The translations under genes and the position numbers were made by a program. A model generated the notes under the pieces. It did no database searches, had not been told where the DNA came from, and saw only the letters and a list, made by a program, of their open reading frames with translations. A stretch of 32,000 bases of DNA, taken from the NCBI RefSeq assembly GCF_000016385.1, contig NC_009376.1, forward strand, positions 1,621,076 through 1,653,075, read 5' to 3'. The DNA comes from Pyrobaculum arsenaticum DSM 13514. Lineage in GTDB: Archaea; Thermoproteota; Thermoprotei; Thermoproteales; Thermoproteaceae. This document shows positions 2,408 through 26,181 of the stretch, piece by piece; position 1 is the stretch's first letter, and each line of letters opens with the position of its first letter.

Positions 2408-4144
2408 CTATTTAAATTCGGCGAATTTTTGCTTGTTCCAGCCTGTTAGCGAGAGTCCTGTGACTTTAACCCAGGTTTTCGGATCTACTTTGAATGAGCT
2501 TTCTACCTTCTCGCGGTGGCCTACTACATTATATGTACAGAATGGGAATACTCTGCCGTCGGGCGTGGCGTAGTGTATGTCACAGCGCTGTACTCTCTCT
2601 ACGTCGTAGTTCATGGTATCCATGAAGTGCATTATTCCGATGCCTACAACGTTGAAGAAGAAGCGGCCTAGGGAGTCGTAGTCCTTCCTCACCAAGAAGT
2701 CGTATATCAAGTCTTTCACCTTCTTGTGCTTAACTGCTTTTAACAACTTCAGGGCTTTTACCTTGGCTGTCTGTTTGTGGATGCCGCCCTTCACTGCGGT
2801 GTAGTATATGTCCCAGGCGCCTTTTTCGAAAGCGTCTACGTCCACCAGCTTGGTGATGGGGTATATCCGCTTCTCGTCTTCGTCGTAGTAGATAAAGGTG
2901 GCGGCGCCGCACATGGGGTTCATTGAGAAGAGCGGTTTGGGCGAATCGGTCAGCGCCTCTACCATTTTGGCTAGTGCCACTGGCCAATTGGTGGGGCGCC
3001 AGTCCCACCTGCTAATGACGCCGCCTGTCTGCTTCTCTATCTCTATTATGGTGTCAGGTATTGTTATTCTGTACTTTCTAAGCTCTTCCTTGCTGTATAG
3101 CTTGGCCCTGCCTGAAAAGCTCACTGGCTGTATGTTTACCCACCTCACCACGTCTCTGTTCTGAACGGCGAAGTCGACTATTTTGCCTAGGTCTTGGTCG
3201 TTGTAGTTCTTAGCGAGGGTGACCACTAGGACGATGGAGCGGTGGCCTAGCTTCCTGGCGTTTTCGATGACCTTCTCCTTTATGATCCTGTAGGCCTTGG
3301 GGTGGTAGAGCCTGTGCCTCCAGACGCCCTCGTTCTTCTCGTCTATTGTGTCGAACTGCAGGTACAGAGTAGAGATCCCAGCGTCAAGAAGCGCCTTGTA
3401 GTACTCAATATCATTAGCAAGTCTTATGCCGTTGGTGTTTATCTCTATGTGGGTGAAGCCGAGCTTCTTGGCCATCCTCACTATTTCGGGCAGGTCGTCT
3501 CTGAGAGTGGGCTCCCCTCCCGATATCTGAATGGCGTTGGGCGGCCACGGCTTCTGCGCTCTCAGTGTCCTGAGCATATACTCGATCTGCTCTAGCGTGG
3601 GCTCGTAGACATAGCCTGCGGCACCGGCGTTTGCGAAGCAGACGGGACAGGCCATATTGCACCTATTAGTGACGTCTATGATGGCGAGTACTGTGTTGGA
3701 CTTGTGGACTGGGCAGAGGCCACAGCCCTCGGGGCATGAGCCCATGTCTTTGTAAAACTCCAGGTCCGTGTATGGGTTGGCGAGGCCCTTGGCGATGTAC
3801 TCAGGGCGGTCCCACTGGAGGAAGTAGTAGTACATCTCTGCGTCGCCCCAGTAGAGGTCTTCAAAGACGCCGTGGTGTGGACAGCTCTTCTTCAGCCATA
3901 TCGCGCCGTTTTCTTCATACACTACGGCGGGTATTCTGGCGTTGCAGACTGGGCAAAGGGAGAGAGTTGCTTTAACCACCCTGGTGTGGGCTGGCAGTCC
4001 GTACTGCCTCTTCAACGTAGACTGCCACTTCTCGTTGAGGAGAGTGGTCTTGTACCTTTCAGGTAGGTTGTACTTAGACAAATCCACAAGTCTGGCTGGC
4101 TTCTCTTCTCGGACTGTAGCCAGCTCGGCAACTTGCTTGCTCAT
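2408..4144 (-). CDS. Radical SAM enzyme with N-terminal zinc ribbon; probable tetraether lipid synthase (Tes / GDGT-MAS family)
   Basis: CNMACPVC is a CxxxCxxC radical SAM site. GSCPEGCGLCPVH is an auxiliary Cys cluster, and CPVC...CPHHG is an N-terminal ribbon. QISGGEPTLR is also present. The 578-aa architecture matches what I recall for the MJ0619/Tes family. Confidence 0.7.
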   Translation of the reverse strand: MSKQVAELATVREEKPARLVDLSKYNLPERYKTTLLNEKWQSTLKRQYGLPAHTRVVKATLSLCPVCNARIPAVVYEENGAIWLKKSCPHHGVFEDLYWGDAEMYYYFLQWDRPEYIAKGLANPYTDLEFYKDMGSCPEGCGLCPVHKSNTVLAIIDVTNRCNMACPVCFANAGAAGYVYEPTLEQIEYMLRTLRAQKPWPPNAIQISGGEPTLRDDLPEIVRMAKKLGFTHIEINTNGIRLANDIEYYKALLDAGISTLYLQFDTIDEKNEGVWRHRLYHPKAYRIIKEKVIENARKLGHRSIVLVVTLAKNYNDQDLGKIVDFAVQNRDVVRWVNIQPVSFSGRAKLYSKEELRKYRITIPDTIIEIEKQTGGVISRWDWRPTNWPVALAKMVEALTDSPKPLFSMNPMCGAATFIYYDEDEKRIYPITKLVDVDAFEKGAWDIYYTAVKGGIHKQTAKVKALKLLKAVKHKKVKDLIYDFLVRKDYDSLGRFFFNVVGIGIMHFMDTMNYDVERVQRCDIHYATPDGRVFPFCTYNVVGHREKVESSFKVDPKTWVKVTGLSLTGWNKQKFAEFK

Positions 4145-4161
4145 GGTCTCGGCATGGTGGC

Positions 4162-4171
4162 TTTTTTTAAA
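4162..4171 (-). promoter_or_regulatory. TATA box for the radical SAM gene
   Basis: TTTAAAAAAA on the minus strand lies about 23 nt upstream of the ATG at 4144. Confidence 0.4.
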
Positions 4172-4196
4172 CTTTTTAACTGTTTTATGTGAAAAG

Positions 4197-4204
4197 AATT
4201 AAAG
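4197..4204 (+). promoter_or_regulatory. TATA box for the TrmB-like regulator gene
   Basis: AATTAAAG lies about 23 nt upstream of the GTG at 4223. Confidence 0.4.
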
Positions 4205-4222
4205 ATAAGTTCTTACACAGCT

Positions 4223-4942
4223 GTGGATCAGCTGGGCAAAGTGCTGGCGTCTTTTGGCATTGGGAAGAGGGAGGTGGACATATACCTAGCGCTAGTGGAG
4301 AGGGGGGAGATGACTGCTAGGGAGCTATCCGACCTGCTGGGCATACCCTACACCAAGATATATGCACATCTTGAAAGGCTGGAGAGACTTGGCTTAATCA
4401 CACCGACAGGCGGTGTGCGGCCGGCTAAATTCAGAGCTACACCCCCCGTGGAGGTATACAGAATATTAGTGAGGCAGACTTCCGAAGTTCTAAAGACTTT
4501 GAAGCCGTTTTTTGACAGCCTGCAGATAGTCTATGAGTCCAGATACGCGGCGGCAACGTCGACATTTCTCACACTAATACGCGGCGCCGAGAGGGTCTCC
4601 GACTTGATCAACGAGGTGTTGTCCGAAGCTGAGACTGAGGCATATCTAGCTCTACCTTTCGAAGAACTTATCTCCTACAAGCTGTTCGCCACGATAGTAG
4701 AGGAGTCTAAGCGTATTTCAATTAAGGTGCTCACTACAGTGCGGCTAAGGGTGAAGTTTGACCTGCCCCCCCGGGTGGAGGTAAGGGCCGTCCCCGAGAT
4801 GTTCGGCGGGGGCGCCATAGGGGGTTCGGTATTGATATTTGTCAAGCACGGCGGCGAAATCTCTGGTGTTTACTCCAACGAGCGTTTTATAGCGGAAATC
4901 GCCAAGACATACTTCTATAACGTATGGCAACGGGCAAAATAG
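4223..4942 (+). CDS. TrmB-family winged-helix transcriptional regulator
   Basis: The N-terminus FGIGKREVDIYLALVERGEMTARELSDLLGIPYTKIYAHLERLERLGLI is a typical TrmB wHTH. Confidence 0.7.
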   Translation: MDQLGKVLASFGIGKREVDIYLALVERGEMTARELSDLLGIPYTKIYAHLERLERLGLITPTGGVRPAKFRATPPVEVYRILVRQTSEVLKTLKPFFDSLQIVYESRYAAATSTFLTLIRGAERVSDLINEVLSEAETEAYLALPFEELISYKLFATIVEESKRISIKVLTTVRLRVKFDLPPRVEVRAVPEMFGGGAIGGSVLIFVKHGGEISGVYSNERFIAEIAKTYFYNVWQRAK

Positions 4943-4969
4943 CTATATAATATAGGTGTAGCCATTTCC

Positions 4970-5023
4970 GTGATGACTTTTTAGTGGGTCCTCTGAATTG
5001 GTGAAGATGGTCTGGAGCTCTGA
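4970..5023 (+). ncRNA. Box C/D sRNA guiding 2'-O-methylation of tRNA-Trp C34 (and probably C39)
   Basis: The boxes are C GTGATGA (4970-4976), D' CTGA (4993-4996), C' GTGAAGA (5001-5007) and D CTGA (5020-5023). The 12-nt D guide TGGTCTGGAGCT is complementary to tRNA-Trp nt 31-40 (GCUCCAGACC). Confidence 0.75.
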
Positions 5024-5024
5024 T

Positions 5025-7409
5025 CTAGGACTCCACTACTGCCTCGGAGCTCTCTTTTTTATCCACCTTGAAGAGGAGCGCGTTGGGAACCGCTTCTTTT
5101 ATCATCTCCGCGAATTCCCTCGACTGGGTAGCGACAACTATCTGGAAACGGCTCGCCAGCGCCTTGACCACTTCGGCAAAGGCTCTTCTTATGTTCACAT
5201 CCACGTAGGGGATCGGCTCGTCGAAGATTACAAATCCCAAGTTTATTCTTGCGATGTCCCGGAGCGCCAGCGCGAGGGCAAGGGCTATGGAGAGTCGCTG
5301 ACCGTCGCTGAGCTTAGAGATTCCATATCTATCCCCGGTGGGAGTTATGGCGTGGAAGTCGTAGAAGCCTCTGCGCTGTTCTAAGTCGGCATCAACCCTT
5401 ACGATGTCGCCATATCTGTACAGAGAGGTGAATACCTCGTTGAATCTGCTCCTAGCCACCTCAAGGAGCCGCGCCCTCGCGTTGATCTTGGCAAGCTCCA
5501 GCTTAGCCTTAACCTCCTGCAACTTGCCATAGGCGTACAGGGTGTTGTCCAGTTTCTTTTTTAACGCCTCGGCGTCTTCGCCGACTTCTCTCACAACTTC
5601 TTCTAGGAGGGCTTTCTCTCTATATGCCTCGGCGAGTTTGCGCGAGGTTTTTTCAAGCTCCTCTACGACCTCTCTCCAGTTTACATCAATGTTTATGACA
5701 TCGCTCGTGATCCCGATCTTTTTCAACGAGTCCTCGATTTCTCTTAAACGCTTACGCAACTCTCTAATCCTTACAGCCCTTCCATACTTGGCGAGGGTAT
5801 CGGATATAGTTCTTCTATCAACTCTAGCCAGCAACAAGCGTAGTCTTTCTGTCTTCTTCTCAAGCTGTTTCCAGGATTTCTCTGCTTGCAACGCCTTCTT
5901 TGCTGCCTCTTCCCTCTCGGTTTCAAGCTCCTCTAATCTAGTCTTCACGGCTAGATACTCCGCGACCTCGCCGCTTAGCGCCTCCGCCTCTTCCACGGCT
6001 TTTTCCAGCTGAGAAGCCCTCTCCTTCAGCTCCTCCACCTCCTTGATGAGAGTTCCGTGTCTAGCCTCCACCTCCTCCACACGGCGAAGGAGATCCTCTT
6101 TCCGCACAGGAGCGCCGCATATGGGGCACTTTTCTGCCCCAGTCTCCGCGGCGTAGAGCGCCACTACTCTCAACGCGGAGGAGTAAGAAACCTCTCTTTC
6201 CAACGTCTGAATCTGTCTTCTAAGCTCCGCCAGCGAGGCGCGAGCCGAATCCACTGACTGGATAGTCTTCTGTAACTCCTTGAAACGAGCGTAGTACTTC
6301 TCAAGTCTTTTTAGCCTTTCCCGTGCCTCGGCTATCTCCTCATCAATTTTCCTAACTCTTGCCGAGTATTGTTCGTAGAGTTTTTTCGCTTCTGCAATCT
6401 GCGCTTCTAGTTCGTTTTGCAACCTCGACAAGGCGTTGTACGCCTCCATCATGGCAATAGACAGCGACTCCACATCGCCGGCTTTTGAGAGCTTCTCGGC
6501 AAGCTCCTCGCCCACGACATGTTCAAATTCCTCTACGGCTTCTCTGAGCGCATCTCTCAGCCTCTCCACTGTTGACTGGTCAAAAGTCCCCCCCTCTGTA
6601 GCGCTTTCTAAAACCTCTAGTTCCGATCTTGTCTTGTAGTACTCAAGGAGCATAGACTCGTGCTCCCTCAGCTTGGCTAAGTGCTCCGCTCTTTTTCTTG
6701 CTAAGTCCTCTGCGTCTCTAGACAGCGCCGCTTCCCTCTCCTTCAGGGTTTCTACCTCTTTTGTTAAGTCTTCTAGGCGCTTCTTGACGCTGGCGAAACC
6801 GCCGTATCTTCTGATCACCTCCTTATACTTCTCATACGCCGCAAGCCTCCCCCTTAGTTCCTCGGCCTTGGCCAAAAGGGACTTCTCAACAGACGAAACA
6901 ACCCGGACAACGCTATCTATCACATCGATACCGAAGAGCCTATCTACTGTTAGCGACCTCTTCTGCGAAGTGCCGTAGATAAAGCCCTCTAGGGTCCTAT
7001 GCGATATGTAGATGAGTCTTTCGTAGATATCCTCGTCGGCGCCTAACAGCTCCTCCAGCCTCCTTTCCGCCTCTCTCCCCCGGAGCTCTTCCCCGTTGAT
7101 TCTCACCACTATCTTTTCGTCGCCGCGCCTCCCTAGGCGCCTTTCTATCTCGAGCAATCTCCCACCATCGCTTAGGACGAGGGAGACTCGCATCTCGTGA
7201 GCTTCGACGTTGATTAGGTCTAGCAACTTGGCGACTCTTTCCTTGACCTCCAATTGCCTCCCGTAGAGGGCGTACTCAACTGCGTATAGGAGAGATGTCT
7301 TACCAGCCCCTATTCTCCCCCACAGTATGTTCACATCGCCTAGGCTCACAACATGCCTCCCCTTGTAGGAGCGGAAGTTTTCCAGCTCAATCCTCTCTAT
7401 CCTCCACAT
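5025..7409 (-). CDS. Rad50/SMC-like coiled-coil ABC ATPase; arcadin-4 of the crenactin cluster
   Basis: Walker A is GRIGAGKTS, the signature motif is LSDGQR, and the Walker B/D-loop is FVIFDEPIPYVD. About 550 aa of heptad-rich E/K/L/R sequence carry CPICG at residues 428-431. It is the last gene of the crenactin operon. Confidence 0.85.
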   Translation of the reverse strand: MWRIERIELENFRSYKGRHVVSLGDVNILWGRIGAGKTSLLYAVEYALYGRQLEVKERVAKLLDLINVEAHEMRVSLVLSDGGRLLEIERRLGRRGDEKIVVRINGEELRGREAERRLEELLGADEDIYERLIYISHRTLEGFIYGTSQKRSLTVDRLFGIDVIDSVVRVVSSVEKSLLAKAEELRGRLAAYEKYKEVIRRYGGFASVKKRLEDLTKEVETLKEREAALSRDAEDLARKRAEHLAKLREHESMLLEYYKTRSELEVLESATEGGTFDQSTVERLRDALREAVEEFEHVVGEELAEKLSKAGDVESLSIAMMEAYNALSRLQNELEAQIAEAKKLYEQYSARVRKIDEEIAEARERLKRLEKYYARFKELQKTIQSVDSARASLAELRRQIQTLEREVSYSSALRVVALYAAETGAEKCPICGAPVRKEDLLRRVEEVEARHGTLIKEVEELKERASQLEKAVEEAEALSGEVAEYLAVKTRLEELETEREEAAKKALQAEKSWKQLEKKTERLRLLLARVDRRTISDTLAKYGRAVRIRELRKRLREIEDSLKKIGITSDVINIDVNWREVVEELEKTSRKLAEAYREKALLEEVVREVGEDAEALKKKLDNTLYAYGKLQEVKAKLELAKINARARLLEVARSRFNEVFTSLYRYGDIVRVDADLEQRRGFYDFHAITPTGDRYGISKLSDGQRLSIALALALALRDIARINLGFVIFDEPIPYVDVNIRRAFAEVVKALASRFQIVVATQSREFAEMIKEAVPNALLFKVDKKESSEAVVES

Positions 7410-7557
7410 CCACCCCCAGCGCCTTTAGGTATTCGAGTAGGGCTCTCCTCACTCCGCGGGGCCCACCCTCCCTATATGCCTGAATAAGACTCTCCGCCAA
7501 CTTGCTCTCGGCTGTGTTGCCAAAGGCCCTTCTGACCTCTTCGAGGAGAATGTCCAC
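7387..7557 (-). CDS. Unlisted 56-aa ORF between arcadin-2 and arcadin-4 (candidate arcadin-3)
   Basis: Hand translation from the GTG start gives VDILLEEVRRAFGNTAESKLAESLIQAYREGGPRGVRRALLEYLKALGVDVEDRED*. It fills the only gap in the operon, and its 3' end overlaps the arcadin-4 start by 23 nt. Confidence 0.4.
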   Translation of the reverse strand: MDILLEEVRRAFGNTAESKLAESLIQAYREGGPRGVRRALLEYLKALGVDVEDRED

Positions 7558-7582
7558 GCCTAGTATTGTCCCGGGGTTTATA

Positions 7583-8164
7583 TTATCTACTGCGGGATCT
7601 CAGAATTCTGACCCACTCGTTGTCCAACGCCGGCGCTTCTGTCTGTCTCTCTGGCTGAGTCGGCGCCTGAGACGCGGCTTGGCGTCTGAACTCCTCTAGT
7701 CTCTGATCTACGTACTTCTTAAGCTTATCTAGAAGAGCCGCTTCGAGACCTTTAATCTCGGCCTTCAAGGACTCAAGCACCGCTGCCTTTACCGCCTCCG
7801 CCACTTTGTTAACATCCACTACTGGGACTTGCGCCTGGCGGGCTTTTGCGTATATCTTTATCTCAACTCCACCAGCTGGATCGACCAGCACCAGCCCTAT
7901 CCCCTGGTTTTTGAAAAACCGAGGATCCACGAAGGCCGAGCCGTCTGGCAACACGGCCAGATACGTCTTCGCTGCGTTGAGCCCCGCCAGCGCTGCGACT
8001 CTTTTGTAGAGCTCTGTCTCTTCGTACACCTCTGAGAGGTATACGTCCACAGCCACTTTGTTCAGCCCATCTTCAAACCACAACACATCTCCTTCCTCAC
8101 CCACAAACTTCATACCGAGAGTCTCAGAGAAGTACCTAATTACCAGTAGTTTTGGAAACTCCAC
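7583..8164 (-). CDS. Probable arcadin-2 (crenactin-binding regulator)
   Basis: The GTG start lies 2 nt after the crenactin stop. The size and position match the gene downstream of crenactin. The disordered tail ends in an amphipathic C-terminal segment, LDNEWVRILRSRSR. Confidence 0.55.
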   Translation of the reverse strand: MEFPKLLVIRYFSETLGMKFVGEEGDVLWFEDGLNKVAVDVYLSEVYEETELYKRVAALAGLNAAKTYLAVLPDGSAFVDPRFFKNQGIGLVLVDPAGGVEIKIYAKARQAQVPVVDVNKVAEAVKAAVLESLKAEIKGLEAALLDKLKKYVDQRLEEFRRQAASQAPTQPERQTEAPALDNEWVRILRSRSR

Positions 8165-8166
8165 AG

Positions 8167-9480
<1,314 letters not shown>

Positions 9481-9488
9481 CTACTTTT

Positions 9489-9830
9489 TTAACTTTCTGG
9501 CTTGATAGTAACGGTCCCACCTTCTACTTGTATAGCTACGACATCTCCCACATCAATATCGCCGTATATCTCTAGCTCCTCATCAGTGAGCCAGAGAGTA
9601 ACTCGGGGCACTGTTATCTTGCCCCCACCGAATGGAAGAGAGCGCACTATCTGCGTCACTAGAGGCATAACCTCCCGCATTAACTGAGCCGCTTGTTCAT
9701 CTTGTGCAGAAAAGGCAGCTACGGGGCCTGGAAGCTCCTTCTCCTCAATTATGTCGATCTTCACATACCTCGTACCGGCAGGGTCGTAGACAAGTTGCTT
9801 TGAAACAACTACGCCCCTAATTGCAACCAT
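9489..9830 (-). CDS. Probable arcadin-1 (113 aa), first gene of the crenactin operon
   Basis: It lies 23 nt upstream of crenactin on the same strand, with a TATA box upstream. The assignment rests on position only; there is no enzymatic motif. Confidence 0.5.
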
Positions 9831-9852
9831 AGAGCCTAAACCCGGCCTATCT

Positions 9853-9858
9853 TTAAAT
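9853..9858 (-). promoter_or_regulatory. TATA box of the crenactin/arcadin operon
   Basis: ATATTTAAAGATA on the minus strand has its core TTTAAA about 23 nt upstream of the ATG at 9830. It abuts the stop of the upstream nitroreductase gene. Confidence 0.45.
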
Positions 9859-9860
9859 AT

Positions 9861-10577
9861 TTACGTAAATCCCGTCTTCCTCAAGAGCTCCACTAGGACT
9901 TGCCCTCTCTCGTTGAAATAGCCTTCAGCACCCGCGTAGCGCTCTAGTAGCCTTAGCCAGTCTCCCGACCTGGTAATCTTCCCCATTATTTGATATGCTT
10001 GGCCCAGCTGAATGTCGGAATATGGCCTATACTCCTCTTTGTGGAAAAGCATATCTAGAGGTAGTCTAGGCCGCTGTGGGGGATCCTCGTCGGGTATCCC
10101 TATGACAAGCCCAAAAAGTGGATAAGTCAGAGGAGGCAGTTTTAACATATCGATAAGCTCTGCTACGGCGTTCTGGACGGCGCCTATAAAACAACTGCCG
10201 TAGCCCAAGGCAGTTGCGGCCAAGGCCATATTCTCGGCCGCCAACGCGGCGTCGACCGCCGCGAATAACAACAGCGACATTTTGTTCCTAGCCATCTCGC
10301 GGTTTCTGAATTTGAGCAATTCTCTTAGGCGGTATAGATCTGCGACAAATACAAAGAAGTCAGACCCCTCATCTACATGCGGCTGATTTATGAGCCTCGC
10401 GATCTCAGCCTTCTTCACATCGTCTCTTATCCAAACCGCACTCCATAGGTGGAGCGTGGCATCTGTCGGCGCCGCCCTACCCGCCTCCATAATCTTCGTA
10501 ATGTCCTCCTCTGGGATTTTCGCCCGCTTAAACTTCCTCACAGAGCGCCTCCTATGTACCGCTTCGAAGAAATCCAC
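9861..10577 (-). CDS. Nitroreductase-family FMN oxidoreductase
   Basis: FFEAVHRRRSVRKF...EDITKIMEAGRAAPT is the canonical nitroreductase N-terminus. Confidence 0.8.
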   Translation of the reverse strand: MDFFEAVHRRRSVRKFKRAKIPEEDITKIMEAGRAAPTDATLHLWSAVWIRDDVKKAEIARLINQPHVDEGSDFFVFVADLYRLRELLKFRNREMARNKMSLLLFAAVDAALAAENMALAATALGYGSCFIGAVQNAVAELIDMLKLPPLTYPLFGLVIGIPDEDPPQRPRLPLDMLFHKEEYRPYSDIQLGQAYQIMGKITRSGDWLRLLERYAGAEGYFNERGQVLVELLRKTGFT

Positions 10578-21625: not shown

Positions 21626-23173
21626 TTAGCCAATGTACAGCTCCGCCACAACTGTAGGCATCCCGTATTTGAACTTGACTAGCAAGTCCGGCGATGTCTC
21701 CGCAACATAACCCTCTACGTCGCCCCTTATTTCAGCAACACGGCCGGGCAGGGCCCAGGCAGTTGACATCTCAGCGAAGTGGCAGTTAAGACCTAACCTG
21801 TGGCATAAGGCCTTCACTGCAGAGAGCCCATCTGTGAGCGTCACGCCGTCTCGGCTTATTAACAACGCCGCTACGCGTCTCGTTTTTCCGTCTCTCACAA
21901 CGTCGCCTATTTCGAAGAGCTTTATTTCCCTCCGCTTTACCAAAGTAGCAGTGGCGATAAGCTGTGTTATTATCGAGCACCTCACCACACTGTACAGCTC
22001 AGATATTGGATTAGCCACCCGCGCCGGCTTGCAGATCTCCTCAACCGCCTCATCGGCTAATATGTAGTTATTCATCTCCATGAAGCCCATCGATAGGAGG
22101 ATTTTACGCGCCTCCTGTGTAAGTATTTCCACACGGTGTCGCCTACCTGCCGACTGAATTCTCGGGGCCTCTCTTGGAAACTGGTTGTAGCCCATCATTA
22201 CGGCCACCTCCTCAGCCACGTCAACCCACGACAAGACATTTGGCCTATAAGGCGGGACTACAACCGCTCCTTCTTGGTATCCGAAACGCGCCATCGCGAC
22301 GTATTTTACGAAATCCTCTCTGGTAATGTCGACGCCAAGAAGGCTACCCACTTCTCGCTCATCTGTTCTAATTGTGACGTACCTGTGGACATATGTCAAG
22401 CCCCCTTCTACTACCTCTACCTCCCTTGTCTCGCTTCTCTCAAGCAATGAATATATCAGGATAGACAACGCGGAGGTGACAGCGTTGGGGTCTGTGCCCG
22501 TGACGTCTATCAAGACGTCTCTACTGCGATCGGTAATTTTACAACATTCTGACCCTAGCACAGGTATGACCACCATTATTTGATCTAAAGAGTCCACAAG
22601 AGCGGGCGGGCGCTCTCTGTTAATGAGGTGGCTGTACTTCCGGCCCTGTTCTGTGGCTTCGTACATCTCCCTGACCTTTATTGGTTTATCAAAGCCCAGA
22701 GGAGTGTACTCGTCGTCTTGGGAAATTCTGACGTAGCGTATGGGGGGTTTTATCTTGGAGACATCGTAGTAGCCAATGGCTATCTTCCTCCTGCCCCGGC
22801 CGTAGGTCTCGTGTAGCTTTTCCTGCAACTGGATCAATTGCCTCACGGCCTCGTCATCTAGTCTCACGCCTCTTACCACCGCCATAGAGATGTAGGGCCT
22901 CTCCTCTATGTGGCCAGCCTCTAGCCTTATACTAGAGGCGCCTAGCCTTATCTTGGGGAGGCCAACCTCCACGCCGGCGACGCCTTTAAGAGTCCTCGCA
23001 AGTCCTTCCGCAGAGAAGTGGTCTGGCCTGTCGTGGGTAACTTCAAGTTTCAACCTGTCGCCCAGATCCTCCTCTACCTCACATTTAACATGCTCCAGTA
23101 GCCTAATCACCTCGCCGAAATTCATGCGAGTTAGTCGCTCCAAGTCAAACTTGGCGACGTCTATAACGGGCAC
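21626..23173 (-). CDS. pheT: Phenylalanyl-tRNA synthetase beta subunit
   Basis: The N-terminus MPVIDVAKFDLERL and the B3/4- and B5-like regions fit the archaeal-type beta chain. Confidence 0.9.
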   Translation of the reverse strand: MPVIDVAKFDLERLTRMNFGEVIRLLEHVKCEVEEDLGDRLKLEVTHDRPDHFSAEGLARTLKGVAGVEVGLPKIRLGASSIRLEAGHIEERPYISMAVVRGVRLDDEAVRQLIQLQEKLHETYGRGRRKIAIGYYDVSKIKPPIRYVRISQDDEYTPLGFDKPIKVREMYEATEQGRKYSHLINRERPPALVDSLDQIMVVIPVLGSECCKITDRSRDVLIDVTGTDPNAVTSALSILIYSLLERSETREVEVVEGGLTYVHRYVTIRTDEREVGSLLGVDITREDFVKYVAMARFGYQEGAVVVPPYRPNVLSWVDVAEEVAVMMGYNQFPREAPRIQSAGRRHRVEILTQEARKILLSMGFMEMNNYILADEAVEEICKPARVANPISELYSVVRCSIITQLIATATLVKRREIKLFEIGDVVRDGKTRRVAALLISRDGVTLTDGLSAVKALCHRLGLNCHFAEMSTAWALPGRVAEIRGDVEGYVAETSPDLLVKFKYGMPTVVAELYIG

Positions 23174-23218
23174 AATTGGGGAAACGTCTAATATTTAAAG
23201 AGAAACACCAAGAAGCGT

Positions 23219-23524
23219 ATGAAACAGAGGGTTGAGCAGTATTTCAAAGAACTACATCAAGCAATAGATAAAGAGATAGAGGCATTTACTGTGGAATGGA
23301 GACAGTACGAGGCGCTGGCCCAGATACAGCTGAAAGAAGATCTCTACGTATTTATCATTTTCTCCTGGTCCGACGAAGAGGACTGCACAATTGAGTACAT
23401 GATAGGCGACGAGAACGCCGTCATTCAGACCAGGCATCTAGACAAGCTCGACTTGGCGGTATCTATAATAAAGACAGCACATCAAATGGCCAAGGAGAAA
23501 CTCGCCTGCCTCCAGCGATCTTAG
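23219..23524 (+). CDS. Hypothetical 101-aa protein
   Basis: ORF only, with no recognised motif. Confidence 0.4.
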   Translation: MKQRVEQYFKELHQAIDKEIEAFTVEWRQYEALAQIQLKEDLYVFIIFSWSDEEDCTIEYMIGDENAVIQTRHLDKLDLAVSIIKTAHQMAKEKLACLQRS

Positions 23525-23728
23525 ACCCTTTGACGCAAGGCCAGGCGGTTCGAAATTCAAGCCGTCTTCCTAGCAACGCCTTTCGCCCCTCTCCTAGGAG
23601 GCCCGCCGATCTCTTTTGAAATACTCAGAATCTCCTACGCTTATGGCGTTCTGTCGTCTGTGCTGGGTTCACGTATCGATGACTCTGCGCGGCTCTGGCG
23701 CGAGCAAGGACGCGGTGTTGACAGAAGG

Positions 23729-24316
23729 TTACTTGTTTGTGACTTTCTTTAGCCTTTCGCGGATTACGTTGATGAGCACCTCGTCGTCTTTGTCGTCTTT
23801 GGGGTATATGAACACCTCCTCCTCTGGCACCACGTTCTCTCCGTTTTCCACGAAGTAAATTAGGCGTAGCGGATAGTCGTACCCCGCTTTGCGGTAGAGC
23901 ATGCGCATGATTTTAGTGGCTAGGGACCACTCTGCCTTGGTTTTCCACTCGCCTTTCTTCAAGATGTGAGACTTCAGCTCTACGAGCTCTTTCTTTCCGT
24001 CGGCGTATTTCACCAAGAAATCCGCTTGTGCCGTGATGGTGACACCCTCTATTTGCAGAGTCACAGGCGGTGCGGGCGTAATCTCCACAATCTTCTTGGC
24101 CCACGGCGTCAGCTTTATGAGCTTACTAAACGCACCGGTGTGGGGTTCGCCGTAGTGCTCTATAAAGGTGCGTAGCGCCACGACTGCGTCTCTTGCCTTT
24201 ATCAGGGCTAAAACTGCCTTCTCAAACGCCTTTCCATAACGGGAGCTCAGAGCGTCGGGCTTCTCTAGCCTAATTAAATCGCTAAGGCGATACTTCAGCC
24301 TCTTAGCAATGCCCAT
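23729..24316 (-). CDS. PD-(D/E)xK-fold nuclease (candidate restriction or mismatch endonuclease)
   Basis: The spacing E53 ... D99 (ITAQADFLV) ... E113-L-K115 (ELVELKS) matches the E/D/ExK core. It is divergent from the C5 methyltransferase gene. Confidence 0.55.
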   Translation of the reverse strand: MGIAKRLKYRLSDLIRLEKPDALSSRYGKAFEKAVLALIKARDAVVALRTFIEHYGEPHTGAFSKLIKLTPWAKKIVEITPAPPVTLQIEGVTITAQADFLVKYADGKKELVELKSHILKKGEWKTKAEWSLATKIMRMLYRKAGYDYPLRLIYFVENGENVVPEEEVFIYPKDDKDDEVLINVIRERLKKVTNK

Positions 24317-24334
24317 GACGGCTTACGGGTTTGT

Positions 24335-24342
24335 ATTTAAAT
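24335..24342. promoter_or_regulatory. Palindromic TATA element ATTTAAAT shared by divergent nuclease and methyltransferase genes
   Basis: It is centred at 24338.5, which is 22.5 nt from the ATG at 24316 (minus) and 24.5 nt from the GTG at 24363 (plus). Confidence 0.5.
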
Positions 24343-24362
24343 AATTTGCTAACCTGCGGTAC

Positions 24363-25319
24363 GTGTATAACGTTATTGATATATTTTCAGGTGGCGGCGG
24401 ATTCGGGCTGGGTTTTAGACAGGCGGGTTTTAAAATAAGGGTGGCGCTTGATGTGGACAGAGACGCGGTCAGGACGTACAGCGCCAACCACGTAAACACG
24501 GTAGTGTTGCAGAGGGACATTAGGGAGGTGAGCTACGAGGATTTGGTCAAATACGGAGAGGCTGATGTGCTAATTGGGAGCCCTCCCTGCGAGCCGTTCA
24601 CATCGGCAAATCCTAACAGAATGGAAGACCCCGCCGACAGGCTTTACCTCGATCCTGCCGGTCAGCTGACACTTGAATTTATCAGGATTGTAGGCGAACT
24701 CAGACCGAAGATCTTCGTCATGGAGAACGTAGCGGCGTTGGCAGAGGAGCCACTGAGGTCGTACATTGAAAGGGAATTCAGAAGGGTGGGCTACGAGGTG
24801 TACTTCAATGTACTCCACGCAGAGGACTACGGAGTCCCCAGCAGGAGGCGGAGGGTCTTCGTCTCAAACGTAGAAATTAGGCCACCTAAAACACGCATCA
24901 TCACGGTCCGAGAGGCGTTGCGCGACCTGCCTCCCCCCGACAGCGGCCTAGTGCCTAACCACGACACGGTGACGATAAGCATGAAAAAACAGTATCAAAT
25001 TGCCCGGCTGAGGCCTGGCGAGGCTTTAATGAAATACAGAGGAGCTACCGGTTTCTATGAAAACTACATCCGGCTACGCTGGGACGAGGTGGCACCCACC
25101 GTAATGGGTACCCGGAGATTTGTCCACCCGGAGGAACACAGAGTCCTCACAGTACGCGAGCAGGCTAGACTAATGGGCTACCCAGACTCATACACCTTCT
25201 TCGGCTCTAAAGACTCACAGTATAACCAAGTTGGAGAAAGCGTGCCGCCCCCGCTGGCTTATGCAATTGCGCTTGAGATACGAAAATATATAGACGAGAA
25301 GGTTTATCGACGTGGCTAG
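24363..25319 (+). CDS. DNA (cytosine-5)-methyltransferase, Dcm/HhaI class
   Basis: Motif I is DIFSGGGGFGLG, IV is GSPPCEPFT, VI is VMENV, VIII is PSRRRRVFV, IX is RVLTVREQARLMGYPDSY, and X is GESVPPPLAYAI. Confidence 0.9.
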   Translation: MYNVIDIFSGGGGFGLGFRQAGFKIRVALDVDRDAVRTYSANHVNTVVLQRDIREVSYEDLVKYGEADVLIGSPPCEPFTSANPNRMEDPADRLYLDPAGQLTLEFIRIVGELRPKIFVMENVAALAEEPLRSYIEREFRRVGYEVYFNVLHAEDYGVPSRRRRVFVSNVEIRPPKTRIITVREALRDLPPPDSGLVPNHDTVTISMKKQYQIARLRPGEALMKYRGATGFYENYIRLRWDEVAPTVMGTRRFVHPEEHRVLTVREQARLMGYPDSYTFFGSKDSQYNQVGESVPPPLAYAIALEIRKYIDEKVYRRG

Positions 25320-26181
25320 AGTCTACTGCCCTCATTGTGGACGACTGGTTGATAAGCTAATTGAAGGAATGTGCGAAGATTGTTATATCGAGAAGTACCC
25401 TCTTATAACAGTAAAAGATAAGACACTGCTGAAGTGTAAGTACTGTGGCGCGGTGTATCTTAGAGGCAAGTGGGTGAGAGCACGAAAAACAGGCACGGAG
25501 GAATTGGTCAAAAGAATACTAGCCGAGAAGGCCACAGTGCGGGGAATAGTGGAAAAAATTGACGTACAAGAGATAGGTAATAAACTACATCTACACGTAA
25601 CGGTGAAGGGGTCGCCTCATCCCCTAATAGCTGAGAGGGCGCTGGCTTACCAAATCGAGTTTAGCTACGACAACGATATCTGTATAGACTGTAGAGAGAT
25701 GCTAAGCAAGAGAGAGTTTGCCTTGCTTCAAGTGAGGGGAACGCCGCGTGGGCTTGATGATGCTATGAAGAAAAAAATTTTCCAAATAGTTGAACAAGAG
25801 TTGTATAAACTTAAAGATAAGAGAATTGGATATATTAGCGATATAAAAAACACTGAAAATGGAGTAGATATATATACAACAAGTGCCGGTCTTGCAAGAC
25901 ATTTGGCATATGTAATTCATAAGCATTTTCCCAGCCAAATAGTAGAAACAGCCAAAAATATTGGAGTGAAGGATGGCAGGAGGTTGTACCACATGACATA
26001 TGCTGTTATTATTATTACATATAAACCAGGAGATATAATAGTACTAAAAGGAGAAAGAAAAAGCACAATTAGTATTAATAATAAATTTATTGTTTTATAT
26101 TCAATTGAAACAAAAAAATACGAACAGATAACTATTAGAGAATTGCTTAGTTCAAAACCGTTGTTGATTGGTAATTCCTAG
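25312..26181 (+). CDS. NMD3-family protein (archaeal homolog of the 60S export adaptor)
   Basis: YCPHCG, MCEDCY, CKYCG...KW and ICIDCRE...FALLQVRG fit the NMD3 N-terminal zinc-binding pattern. The GTG start lies inside the last 8 nt of the methyltransferase gene. Confidence 0.7.
   Translation: MARVYCPHCGRLVDKLIEGMCEDCYIEKYPLITVKDKTLLKCKYCGAVYLRGKWVRARKTGTEELVKRILAEKATVRGIVEKIDVQEIGNKLHLHVTVKGSPHPLIAERALAYQIEFSYDNDICIDCREMLSKREFALLQVRGTPRGLDDAMKKKIFQIVEQELYKLKDKRIGYISDIKNTENGVDIYTTSAGLARHLAYVIHKHFPSQIVETAKNIGVKDGRRLYHMTYAVIIITYKPGDIIVLKGERKSTISINNKFIVLYSIETKKYEQITIRELLSSKPLLIGNS

Follow-up and report, generated by a model that had tools for sequence, protein, structure and literature searches.

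In this work, we analysed a stretch of 32,000 nucleotides (nt) from the chromosome of the hyperthermophilic archaeon Pyrobaculum arsenaticum DSM 13514 (NC_009376.1, positions 1,621,076 to 1,653,075), which we call the window, and in particular a pair of divergent genes within it that encode a C5-cytosine DNA methyltransferase and a small PD-(D/E)xK nuclease. A first-pass annotation of the sequence had offered two readings of this pair, a compact type II restriction-modification (R-M) system, or a methyltransferase accompanied by a Vsr-like T:G mismatch endonuclease. We find that the pair is an ordinary, vertically inherited locus of the core genome that sits in a block of housekeeping genes, and is not a mobile defence module. 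The methyltransferase is, judging from its sequence, the Thermoproteaceae ortholog of an already known family, HG2, and the nuclease is predicted, from its modelled fold, to be a small and new addition to the Cas4/RecB/RecE-like branch of PD-(D/E)xK nucleases. The interpretation that we favour, and to which we give about an even chance, is that of an independent repair or recombination nuclease lying beside a persistent orphan methylase.

Both open reading frames (ORFs) were found where the first-pass annotation had placed them, the nuclease of 195 amino acids (aa) divergent from the methyltransferase of 318 aa. A pattern scan of species-representative genomes recovered 11 loci, in all of which the methyltransferase gene is divergent from the nuclease gene and is flanked by genes for isocitrate dehydrogenase (IDH), a GNAT acetyltransferase and NMD3. 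The acetyltransferase and IDH are also encoded near the pair in the window. The scan missed P. neutrophilum, P. islandicum and P. calidifontis; these were recovered through look-ups of their NMD3 genes and, together with one further Pyrobaculum metagenome-assembled genome (MAG), have the identical arrangement. An early impression from the scan, that the pair is patchily distributed, was dropped once these three species had been recovered. The synteny block IDH-GNAT-NMD3-methyltransferase<>nuclease-orf101-PheT is found in P. oguniense, strain WP30, P. neutrophilum, P. islandicum, P. calidifontis and in MAGs, and Thermoproteus MAGs retain the part from IDH to the nuclease. In every cultured Pyrobaculum genome examined the nuclease gene adjoins the methyltransferase gene. 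This vertical inheritance within a housekeeping block, in all the cultured Pyrobaculum examined and in Thermoproteus MAGs, argues against a mobile type II R-M system.

The sequences themselves are also well preserved. The homologues of both proteins in P. oguniense TE7 are 97-98% identical to those of the window. For the nuclease, identity across Pyrobaculum genomes and most of the MAGs is 74-84%, compared with 63-70% for the beta subunit of phenylalanyl-tRNA synthetase (PheRS beta, PheT), 40-55% for NMD3 and 82-92% for IDH at the same loci. We therefore conclude that the nuclease is under strong purifying selection. The features of the locus are collected in Table 1.

Table 1. Features of the methyltransferase-nuclease locus and its neighbours (positions in the window)
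Feature	Position	Strand	Basis
PD-(D/E)xK nuclease ORF, 195 aa, ATG start	23729-24316	-	ORF call, conserved residues and predicted fold
C5-cytosine DNA methyltransferase ORF, 318 aa, GTG start	24363-25319	+	PF00145, HG2 member
Divergent promoter spacer, 46 nt	24317-24362		Read from the sequence
TATA box TATTTAAATAA, containing the palindrome ATTTAAAT at 24335-24342	24334-24344		
Conserved block to the right of the TATA box, AATTTGCTAACCT/AATTTGCTAAC here, TTTACTCACTA in most species	24343-24355	-	Spacer alignment
NMD3-family gene	25312-26181	+	PF04981, E 2.3e-45
PheRS beta (PheT)	21626-23173	-	
Conserved 101-aa ORF (orf101)	23219-23524	+	

The first-pass annotation assigned the 318-aa protein to the Dcm/HhaI class from a set of motifs, and every one of them is present in the translation: FSGGGGFGLG, PPCEPFT, ENV, RRRRVFV, TVREQARLMGYP and GESVPPPLA. 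Motifs I (FxGxG), IV (PC), VI (ENV), VIII (RxR), IX and X follow one another in canonical order. Residues 2-307 align to positions 1-323 of the 324 in the PF00145 profile (E 1.1e-58), there is a match to TIGR00675, dcm (E 6.1e-50), and the PADLOC models for type II methyltransferases match as well. The enzyme can be called a DNA C5-cytosine methyltransferase with confidence. Its motif IV reads PCE rather than PCQ and its motif X reads GE rather than GN, and both variants are invariant across the family. The PCE variant had been noted as reminiscent of Dnmt2. However, this likeness is superficial: in a search of the PDB the closest solved relative is M.HaeIII (E 1.4e-34), with Dnmt2 at about 1e-10, and members of the family methylate DNA in vivo. 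For these reasons a role on RNA only is unlikely. The variable region had been described as very short; it spans about 95 aa (residues 168-262), only modestly shorter than that of M.HaeIII in the alignment.

The family to which this enzyme belongs has been described as a 'persistent orphan' 5-methylcytosine (m5C) DNA methyltransferase, HG2, present in 99 of 100 crenarchaeal genomes (Anton et al. 2023, PMC10609329). Two of its members, M.SuaII and M.Asp7I, methylated C(m5C)WGG, the site of Escherichia coli Dcm, when they were expressed in E. coli (PMC10609329). The REBASE clusters 316, 613 and 254 define HG2; both tested enzymes are in cluster 316, and the tables of the same study list one RM-related gene for P. 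arsenaticum DSM 13514, in cluster 613, which was merged into HG2 (PMC10609329). Over the full length, the window enzyme is 56% identical to the Ignicoccus pacificus enzyme of cluster 613 and 58% identical to the Vulcanisaeta souniana enzyme of cluster 316. More generally, identity to the window enzyme is 73-81% in Pyrobaculum, 60-66% in Thermoproteus, 58-60% in Thermocladium, Vulcanisaeta and Caldivirga, and 54-57% in Ignisphaera, Ignicoccus and the Desulfurococcales, a smooth gradient overall. This is the pattern of vertical descent, and the nuclease gene adjacent to the methyltransferase in the Thermoproteaceae is not recognisable as that of a restriction enzyme. All these lineages have in common a conserved variable region as well as the PCE and GE(S/A)VPP motifs. 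By homology and from the conserved variable region, the target of the window enzyme is probably the inner cytosine of CCWGG, i.e. C(m5C)WGG.

The window enzyme thus shares with HG2 its sequence family, the two motif variants and the variable region. The difference is in the surroundings. HG2 has been described as an orphan, whereas the cultured Pyrobaculum examined and the Thermoproteus MAGs have a conserved nuclease gene head-to-head with it. In Vulcanisaeta and Ignicoccus the methyltransferase stands in other housekeeping contexts and has no relative of the nuclease beside it. A 219-aa ORF that overlaps the Ignicoccus methyltransferase gene was considered as an alternative nuclease partner and rejected (hhalign probability 0.5%, no Pfam match). 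Two other specificities were also considered. GGCC, suggested by the match to M.HaeIII, was set aside as the tested family members methylate CCWGG, yet GGCC is moderately depleted, with an observed-to-expected ratio (O/E) of 0.68-0.74. An enzyme like M.ApeKI, with the target GCWGC, was dismissed since M.ApeKI is a 56-kDa protein of a different group.

One part of the methyltransferase does differ between lineages. A loop that precedes the conserved APTV motif of the variable region (residues about 236-247; window about 25068-25103) reads RLxWD[ED][VI] in Pyrobaculum and Thermoproteus, and RLxPxxx or similar in other Crenarchaeota. This is a lineage-specific change in what is probably a DNA-recognition loop, and the lineage is the same one that has the adjacent nuclease.

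For the 195-aa neighbour, the first-pass annotation proposed a nuclease core of E53, D99 and E113-x-K115. The last three residues stand firm, as none of them varies among 17 homologues or in the two deepest ones; H117 and Y141 are also invariant, with the conserved tyrosine lying in the helix after the core. E53 is less secure: it is invariant within the Thermoproteaceae but is a glutamine in the divergent homologue P0243, whereas E32, in the invariant RYGKAFE motif, is conserved in all homologues. The identity of the first acidic residue is therefore uncertain. That said, the invariant residues and the fold matches agree that the protein is a PD-(D/E)xK nuclease. The AlphaFold2 model (pLDDT 86.6, pTM 0.82) puts D99 at the edge of the strand 100-104 and E113-L-K115 within the strand 109-119, beside the helix 124-143. 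The top Foldseek matches in the PDB are Cas4 SSO0001, Exo5, ACE1 (an Argonaute-associated, Cas4-like protein), AddB/AdnA, RecE, RecB, MGME1 and lambda exonuclease, with E values from 7e-6 to 1e-2 and TM scores of 0.4-0.53. The restriction enzymes HincII and BsaXI are only marginal in the same search (E about 0.02, TM 0.17-0.37). Among the viral models of BFVD there are 125 matches at E <= 1e-3, the best at 3e-8 and with TM scores of up to 0.65, and where these are named they are Cas4, PD-(D/E)XK superfamily, RecB-family exonuclease or exodeoxyribonuclease VIII.

Sequence searches place the nuclease above no threshold in Pfam, NCBIfam, PADLOC, PHROGs or the PDB, with either a single sequence or a profile. 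The only Pfam matches are weak ones to TnsA_N and DUF1064, both of them PD-(D/E)xK families (E 0.03-0.05), and a 61%-identical relative nearly reaches the cut-off of PF12705 (21.8 against 22 bits). In an exhaustive search of 1.84 billion representative proteins with a hidden Markov model, we obtained 22 matches, three of which are full-length clusters. The family is restricted to the Thermoproteaceae and two deep-branching metagenomic lineages; no relatives were found in 50,697 phage records or in IMG/VR. The protein has zero cysteines and therefore lacks the Fe-S cluster of Cas4. The 'solo-Cas4' of the Thermoproteales was ruled out as an identity, given the missing cysteines (Cas4 has four of them, which coordinate the cluster) and the absence of a match to any Cas4 profile (DUF83/PF01930). 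In short, the nuclease is like Cas4, RecB, RecE, lambda exonuclease, Exo5 and MGME1 in its fold, in its D...ExK core and in the tyrosine of the following helix. It differs from them in falling below every Pfam threshold, in being, at 195 aa, smaller than most members, and in having no link to CRISPR. As this fold class is of the exonuclease type, we infer a role in the processing of DNA ends or single-stranded DNA (ssDNA) during repair or recombination.

The nuclease is not confined to the vicinity of the methyltransferase. A scan of metagenomes yielded 80 further nuclease loci, which fall into two types. Members that align over residues 1-195 have the methyltransferase divergent and upstream. 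For members of a 185-aa type, which are 70-82% identical and start with MVKLSD, neither flank contains a methyltransferase over distances of up to 6 kb. There are 28 unpaired metagenomic loci with at least 1.2 kb of upstream sequence, and a 20.5-kb locus from a 67-kb contig, which carries the Pyrobaculum-specific PaREP1 family, has no methyltransferase. When clustered at 95%, the 38 resolvable lineages comprise 18 paired, 20 unpaired and no mixed ones, where unpaired means that no methyltransferase is adjacent and one may exist elsewhere in the same metagenomic genome. Neighbour-joining groups the unpaired clades as sisters to paired ones, within both the Pyrobaculum-like and the Thermoproteus-like groups. 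The first-pass annotation had named conservation of the 195-aa protein away from a methyltransferase in many genomes as evidence against a linked unit, and this is what the sister clades show.

The unpaired copies have a setting of their own. They lie in a same-strand cluster of the form a412-b121-c158(HTH)-nuclease-d592-e624, where the numbers are protein lengths in aa and HTH denotes a helix-turn-helix-like protein (L032, positions 3765-10508; also L031, L044, L046 and L103), with a gene for a GIY-YIG protein upstream on the opposite strand. Imperfect inverted repeats of the CCCTACAGGGATAATTATCCCTGT type precede several of the unpaired nuclease genes. This raises the possibility that the nuclease properly belongs to an uncharacterised multi-gene system, and that its adjacency to the methyltransferase in cultured Pyrobaculum is a remnant of rearrangement. 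Many metagenomic loci contain the cluster, at 40-100% identity, and two loci combine parts of both settings: L061 has the methyltransferase upstream of the nuclease and d592-e624 downstream, while L060 joins the upstream genes of the cluster to the downstream genes TrxR-PrpD of Thermoproteus. In addition, no separate TATA box lies at the usual distance from the unpaired nuclease genes, and this suggests that they are transcribed as part of an operon. Against this idea, tblastn detects none of the partner genes in the window, nor in any of the paired loci obtained from cultured Pyrobaculum genomes, and the nuclease is just as well conserved there. Furthermore, the cluster proteins a412, b121, c158, d592 and e624 match nothing in Pfam, PADLOC or NCBIfam, and d592, the only one compared with the PDB, matches nothing there, so with partners that lack recognisable domains no mechanism can be proposed. 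We consider this explanation distinctly unlikely.

The two deep homologues lie beside a different protein. P0243 and P0244 (L018, positions 3547-4892; L019, positions 2-1232) are 38-43% identical to the window nuclease, and each is preceded, with overlapping stop and start codons, by a homologous protein X of 234-268 aa (35% identity, E 2e-32), for which a sequence search of the PDB was empty and which may be a single-strand annealing protein. Further genes of L018, which share one strand, are those for a DUF87/FtsK-like ATPase, a ResIII helicase and a DnaQ-like exonuclease; there is no methyltransferase. In its gene content this locus looks like the replication or recombination module of a mobile element.

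We now return to restriction. The vertical synteny, the orphan nature of HG2, the absence of a restriction gene from the REBASE-derived tables, the exonuclease-type fold and the behaviour of the CCWGG site (below) together speak against the compact type II R-M system of the first-pass annotation. A subtler version deserves separate treatment, namely that the pair is a persistent type II system that has become fixed in the core genome of the Thermoproteaceae, with the nuclease cutting the unmethylated target. There is a precedent for a persistent and complete R-M system in SuaI, of group HG15 (PMC10609329). Much as in the HaeIII and the CCWGG-specific EcoRII/PspGI systems, a methyltransferase gene adjoins a PD-(D/E)xK gene, and M.HaeIII is the closest solved relative of the methyltransferase. 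The two genes are divergent, both are under strong purifying selection, they remain together in the cultured Pyrobaculum genomes, and the occurrence of the methyltransferase without the nuclease elsewhere is the classic asymmetry of R-M systems. However, the present pair differs from those systems in being a syntenic, vertically inherited part of a core genome. The nuclease is unlike any known restriction enzyme: it has no match to a restriction-enzyme family in Pfam, NCBIfam or PADLOC, and its fold class is that of exonucleases. It is more conserved than PheRS beta, which would be unusual for a restriction enzyme, and 20 of its 38 lineages have no adjacent methyltransferase. In the REBASE-derived tables P. 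arsenaticum is without a restriction gene, and the number of type II restriction genes in the Thermoproteales is only 0.07 per genome (PMC10609329). In Sulfolobus acidocaldarius HG2 appears to be poorly expressed and no m5C was detected, a state that would be lethal beside a cognate restriction enzyme.

The distribution of the CCWGG site also bears on this question, as avoidance of the target was one of the checks proposed in the first-pass annotation. Using maximal-order Markov expectations throughout, we find that CCWGG, the known target of the family, is not avoided in host DNA (O/E 0.97 in the window and 0.94-0.95 in 113-134 kb of Pyrobaculum DNA), which argues against an active CCWGG restriction enzyme. 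For viruses we used Pyrobaculum spherical virus (PSV, L020; 28.3 kb) and Thermoproteus tenax spherical virus 1 (TTSV1, L021; first 20 kb), in which the O/E of CCWGG is 0.57 and 1.39, respectively. The virus test is a weak one, because a system present in all hosts would leave the viruses pre-methylated, and the missing avoidance of CCWGG in these two viruses is for the same reason not decisive against a fixed R-M system. Taking all of this together, we regard such a system as very improbable.

The second reading of the first-pass annotation, a Vsr-like T:G endonuclease, is not supported by homology, as Vsr is absent from the Pfam matches even at E <= 0.1 and from the 50 best fold matches in the PDB. 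A functional analogue is a different matter. The nuclease might act on T:G mismatches, or on nicks or apurinic/apyrimidinic (AP) sites derived from them, as the patch-excision enzyme of a pathway like very-short-patch repair. The source of damage would be rapid deamination of m5C at the sites of the methyltransferase at 90-100 C, and co-expression from a single TATA box would couple damage to repair. The likeness to Dcm-Vsr of E. coli is real in some respects: a methyltransferase that probably shares the Dcm specificity, CCWGG, which its family is known to methylate, stands beside a small nuclease gene and faces the same deamination problem. The head-to-head layout is conserved in Pyrobaculum and Thermoproteus. 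The undepleted CCWGG, together with a slight enrichment of the deamination products CTWGG and CCWAG (O/E 1.05-1.19 in 134 kb of Pyrobaculum DNA), is what would be expected from either efficient repair or low methylation. Bacterial Cas4-like nucleases associate with Dcm and Vsr genes (PMC5704561), and the persistence of an m5C methylase in hyperthermophiles, given how rapidly m5C deaminates at high temperature, has been flagged as an unsolved conundrum (PMC10609329).

There are, however, several points on the other side. The nuclease has no similarity to Vsr in sequence or fold, and Vsr is a family of its own with its own catalytic residues. The E. coli genes are overlapping and co-directional, while those of the window are divergent, and about half of the nuclease lineages do not adjoin a methyltransferase. 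Vulcanisaeta and Ignicoccus have the same methyltransferase family without such a nuclease beside it, and no homologue of the nuclease was found outside Thermoproteaceae-like sequences. The deep homologues lie in a module of helicase, ATPase and exonuclease genes that lacks a methyltransferase. Finally, P. aerophilum already has a T:G mismatch glycosylase, Pa-MIG. We think that a Vsr analogue is unlikely. A broader proposal, for which the chances also seem low, is that a universal crenarchaeal Dcm-like methyltransferase gained a dedicated Cas4/RecE-like partner in Pyrobaculum and Thermoproteus, one that removes the T:G damage arising from m5C deamination at about 95 C or has some other action on the methylated site, and that is co-expressed from the shared TATA box. 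If this were true, the locus would be a non-homologous archaeal equivalent of Dcm-Vsr, and it would offer a first entry to the question of why an m5C methylase is retained in hyperthermophiles.

Under the interpretation that we favour, that of an independent nuclease next to an orphan methylase, the methyltransferase would methylate DNA with S-adenosylmethionine (AdoMet) and the cysteine of the invariant P-C-E motif. The nuclease would be a metal-dependent PD-(D/E)xK enzyme of the Cas4/RecB/RecE/lambda-exonuclease class, without an Fe-S cluster, that acts on DNA ends or ssDNA in repair or recombination, and does not cut a specific unmethylated site. Both genes would be leaderless and start from one TATA box, an arrangement that is standard in Pyrobaculum where divergent genes lie close together. 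The functions of the two proteins would be independent of each other.

Several considerations weigh against this interpretation. The only recognised DNA methyltransferase of the genome lies head-to-head with a nuclease, 46 nt away, in two genera, which random placement would rarely produce. Adjacency of a methyltransferase and a nuclease usually signals a functional link, as in R-M or Dcm-Vsr. In bacteria, fusions of UvrD with a Cas4-like domain recur beside the genes for Dcm and Vsr (Hudaiberdiev et al. 2017, PMC5704561), and are therefore a precedent for a Cas4-like nuclease working with a Dcm-type methylase. The window locus shares that association but has no helicase fusion and no Vsr, and is part of an archaeal core genome, whereas the bacterial loci are patchy. 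Furthermore, the fold similarity is moderate (TM 0.45-0.65), and the PD-(D/E)xK core is common to restriction enzymes. Lastly, because the whole neighbourhood is conserved, the adjacency is hard to interpret either way.

The promoter region had been singled out in the first-pass annotation, and the details given there are correct: the spacer is 46 nt long and contains a perfect palindrome, ATTTAAAT. Measured from the centre of this palindrome, the first base of the start codon is 22.5 nt away for the nuclease and 24.5 nt away for the methyltransferase. A perfect 8-nt palindrome is not rare in a spacer of this length (39 positions x 1/256, or about 0.15 expected). What exceeds chance is the conservation of the A/T block, and not the palindrome itself. 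In 18 distinct Pyrobaculum spacers this 10-nt block, at fixed spacing, has a majority fraction of 98%, compared with 69-74% for the flanking sequence. About 35 paired loci, from two genera, share the geometry CAT-18 nt-ATTTAAAT-20 nt-GTG; in Thermoproteus the spacing is kept and the element is ATATAAAA or TATATAAA, neither of which is palindromic.

The layout is also a general one. Among 40 gene starts from four Pyrobaculum loci, the median distance from the centre of the best A/T 8-mer to the start codon is 24.5 nt, with a main mode at 22.5-25.5. Divergent spacers of 45-48 nt with a single TATA box also occur at PheT/orf101, orotidine monophosphate (OMP) decarboxylase/archease and IDH/ECH in related genomes. 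The window has one of them 1.1 kb away, the 45-nt spacer between PheRS beta and orf101 (23174-23218), where a single A/T element, AATATTTAAA (23190-23199), is about equidistant from both starts. Of the earlier idea that one symmetric TATA box serves two leaderless genes, the part that survives is that a single, conserved element is positioned for both; the layout is generic in Pyrobaculum and not special to this pair. As the same arrangement recurs at other divergent pairs of Pyrobaculum, the shared TATA box says little about a functional link.

Immediately to the right of the TATA box there is a second conserved block (Table 1), which on the minus strand reads GCAAAT or GTAAAT directly upstream of the TATA box. 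We take this GYAAAT block to be a purine-rich element like the archaeal transcription factor B recognition element (BRE), facing the nuclease gene. No comparable A-rich or BRE-like element is found on the methyltransferase side of the spacer, and for this reason transcription on that side may be weak. Divergent promoters with a shared TATA box are known from the Thermococcales, the distance between the transcription start sites being 52 bp in T. kodakarensis and, in vitro, 49 bp in P. furiosus. The window resembles these bidirectional BRE-TATA-BRE promoters in having one TATA box between divergent start codons 47 bp apart. It differs in having a BRE-like element on one side only, and the distance here is between start codons, not transcription start sites.

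Two loci depart from this geometry. In a Thermoproteus MAG (L008, about 4700-5000) and in a Pyrobaculum metagenome contig (L075, about 5720-5970), some 250-300 nt are inserted between the TATA box and the methyltransferase start. The insertions break the 46-nt arrangement and leave both genes intact.

These results have some practical consequences. The locus should not be annotated as an R-M system, and its shared palindromic TATA box should be seen as normal Pyrobaculum promoter architecture. HG2 has been treated as an orphan (PMC10609329), and its position in the Thermoproteaceae, head-to-head with a strongly conserved nuclease, is a concrete lead for experiments. If the nuclease has nothing to do with methylation, what is left of the finding is a new, small family of PD-(D/E)xK proteins.

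The neighbours of the pair deserve a brief description. The methyltransferase gene overlaps the start of the NMD3 gene by 8 nt (25312-25319), and across all the Pyrobaculum loci the distance between the two ranges from this 8-nt overlap to a gap of 46 nt. In view of the overlap and of the tight linkage in every Pyrobaculum locus, the methyltransferase is probably co-transcribed with NMD3, a gene of the ribosome-biogenesis type. On the other side of the pair, P. arsenaticum and P. oguniense have a non-coding gap of 204 nt (window 23525-23728) between the convergent 3' ends of orf101 and the nuclease gene; in other Pyrobaculum species these two genes overlap at their 3' ends. No RNA in this gap is matched by Rfam, whose sole match in the window is a tRNA elsewhere.

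The site statistics turned up two further signals. GCWGC (GCAGC/GCTGC) is the most under-represented of the 512 strand-symmetrised 5-mers in 134 kb of Pyrobaculum DNA, where it occurs 83 times and 215 occurrences are expected (O/E 0.39). The window has 11, with 54 expected (O/E 0.20), while GCSGC is not depleted (0.90), and both PSV and TTSV1 avoid GCWGC too (O/E 0.25 and 0.16). Some Pyrobaculum strains, not including P. arsenaticum, have GCWGC m5C methylases according to a review that cites REBASE. The likeliest cause of the depletion is patchy GCWGC restriction in the genus, and it could conceivably reflect the specificity of the Thermoproteaceae branch of HG2. The other signal is GATC, which both globuloviruses almost completely lack (PSV has 1 where 51 are expected, TTSV1 has 4 where 38 are expected) and which is only mildly low in the host loci (O/E 0.80-0.94). 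This implies GATC-directed restriction in at least some of the hosts.

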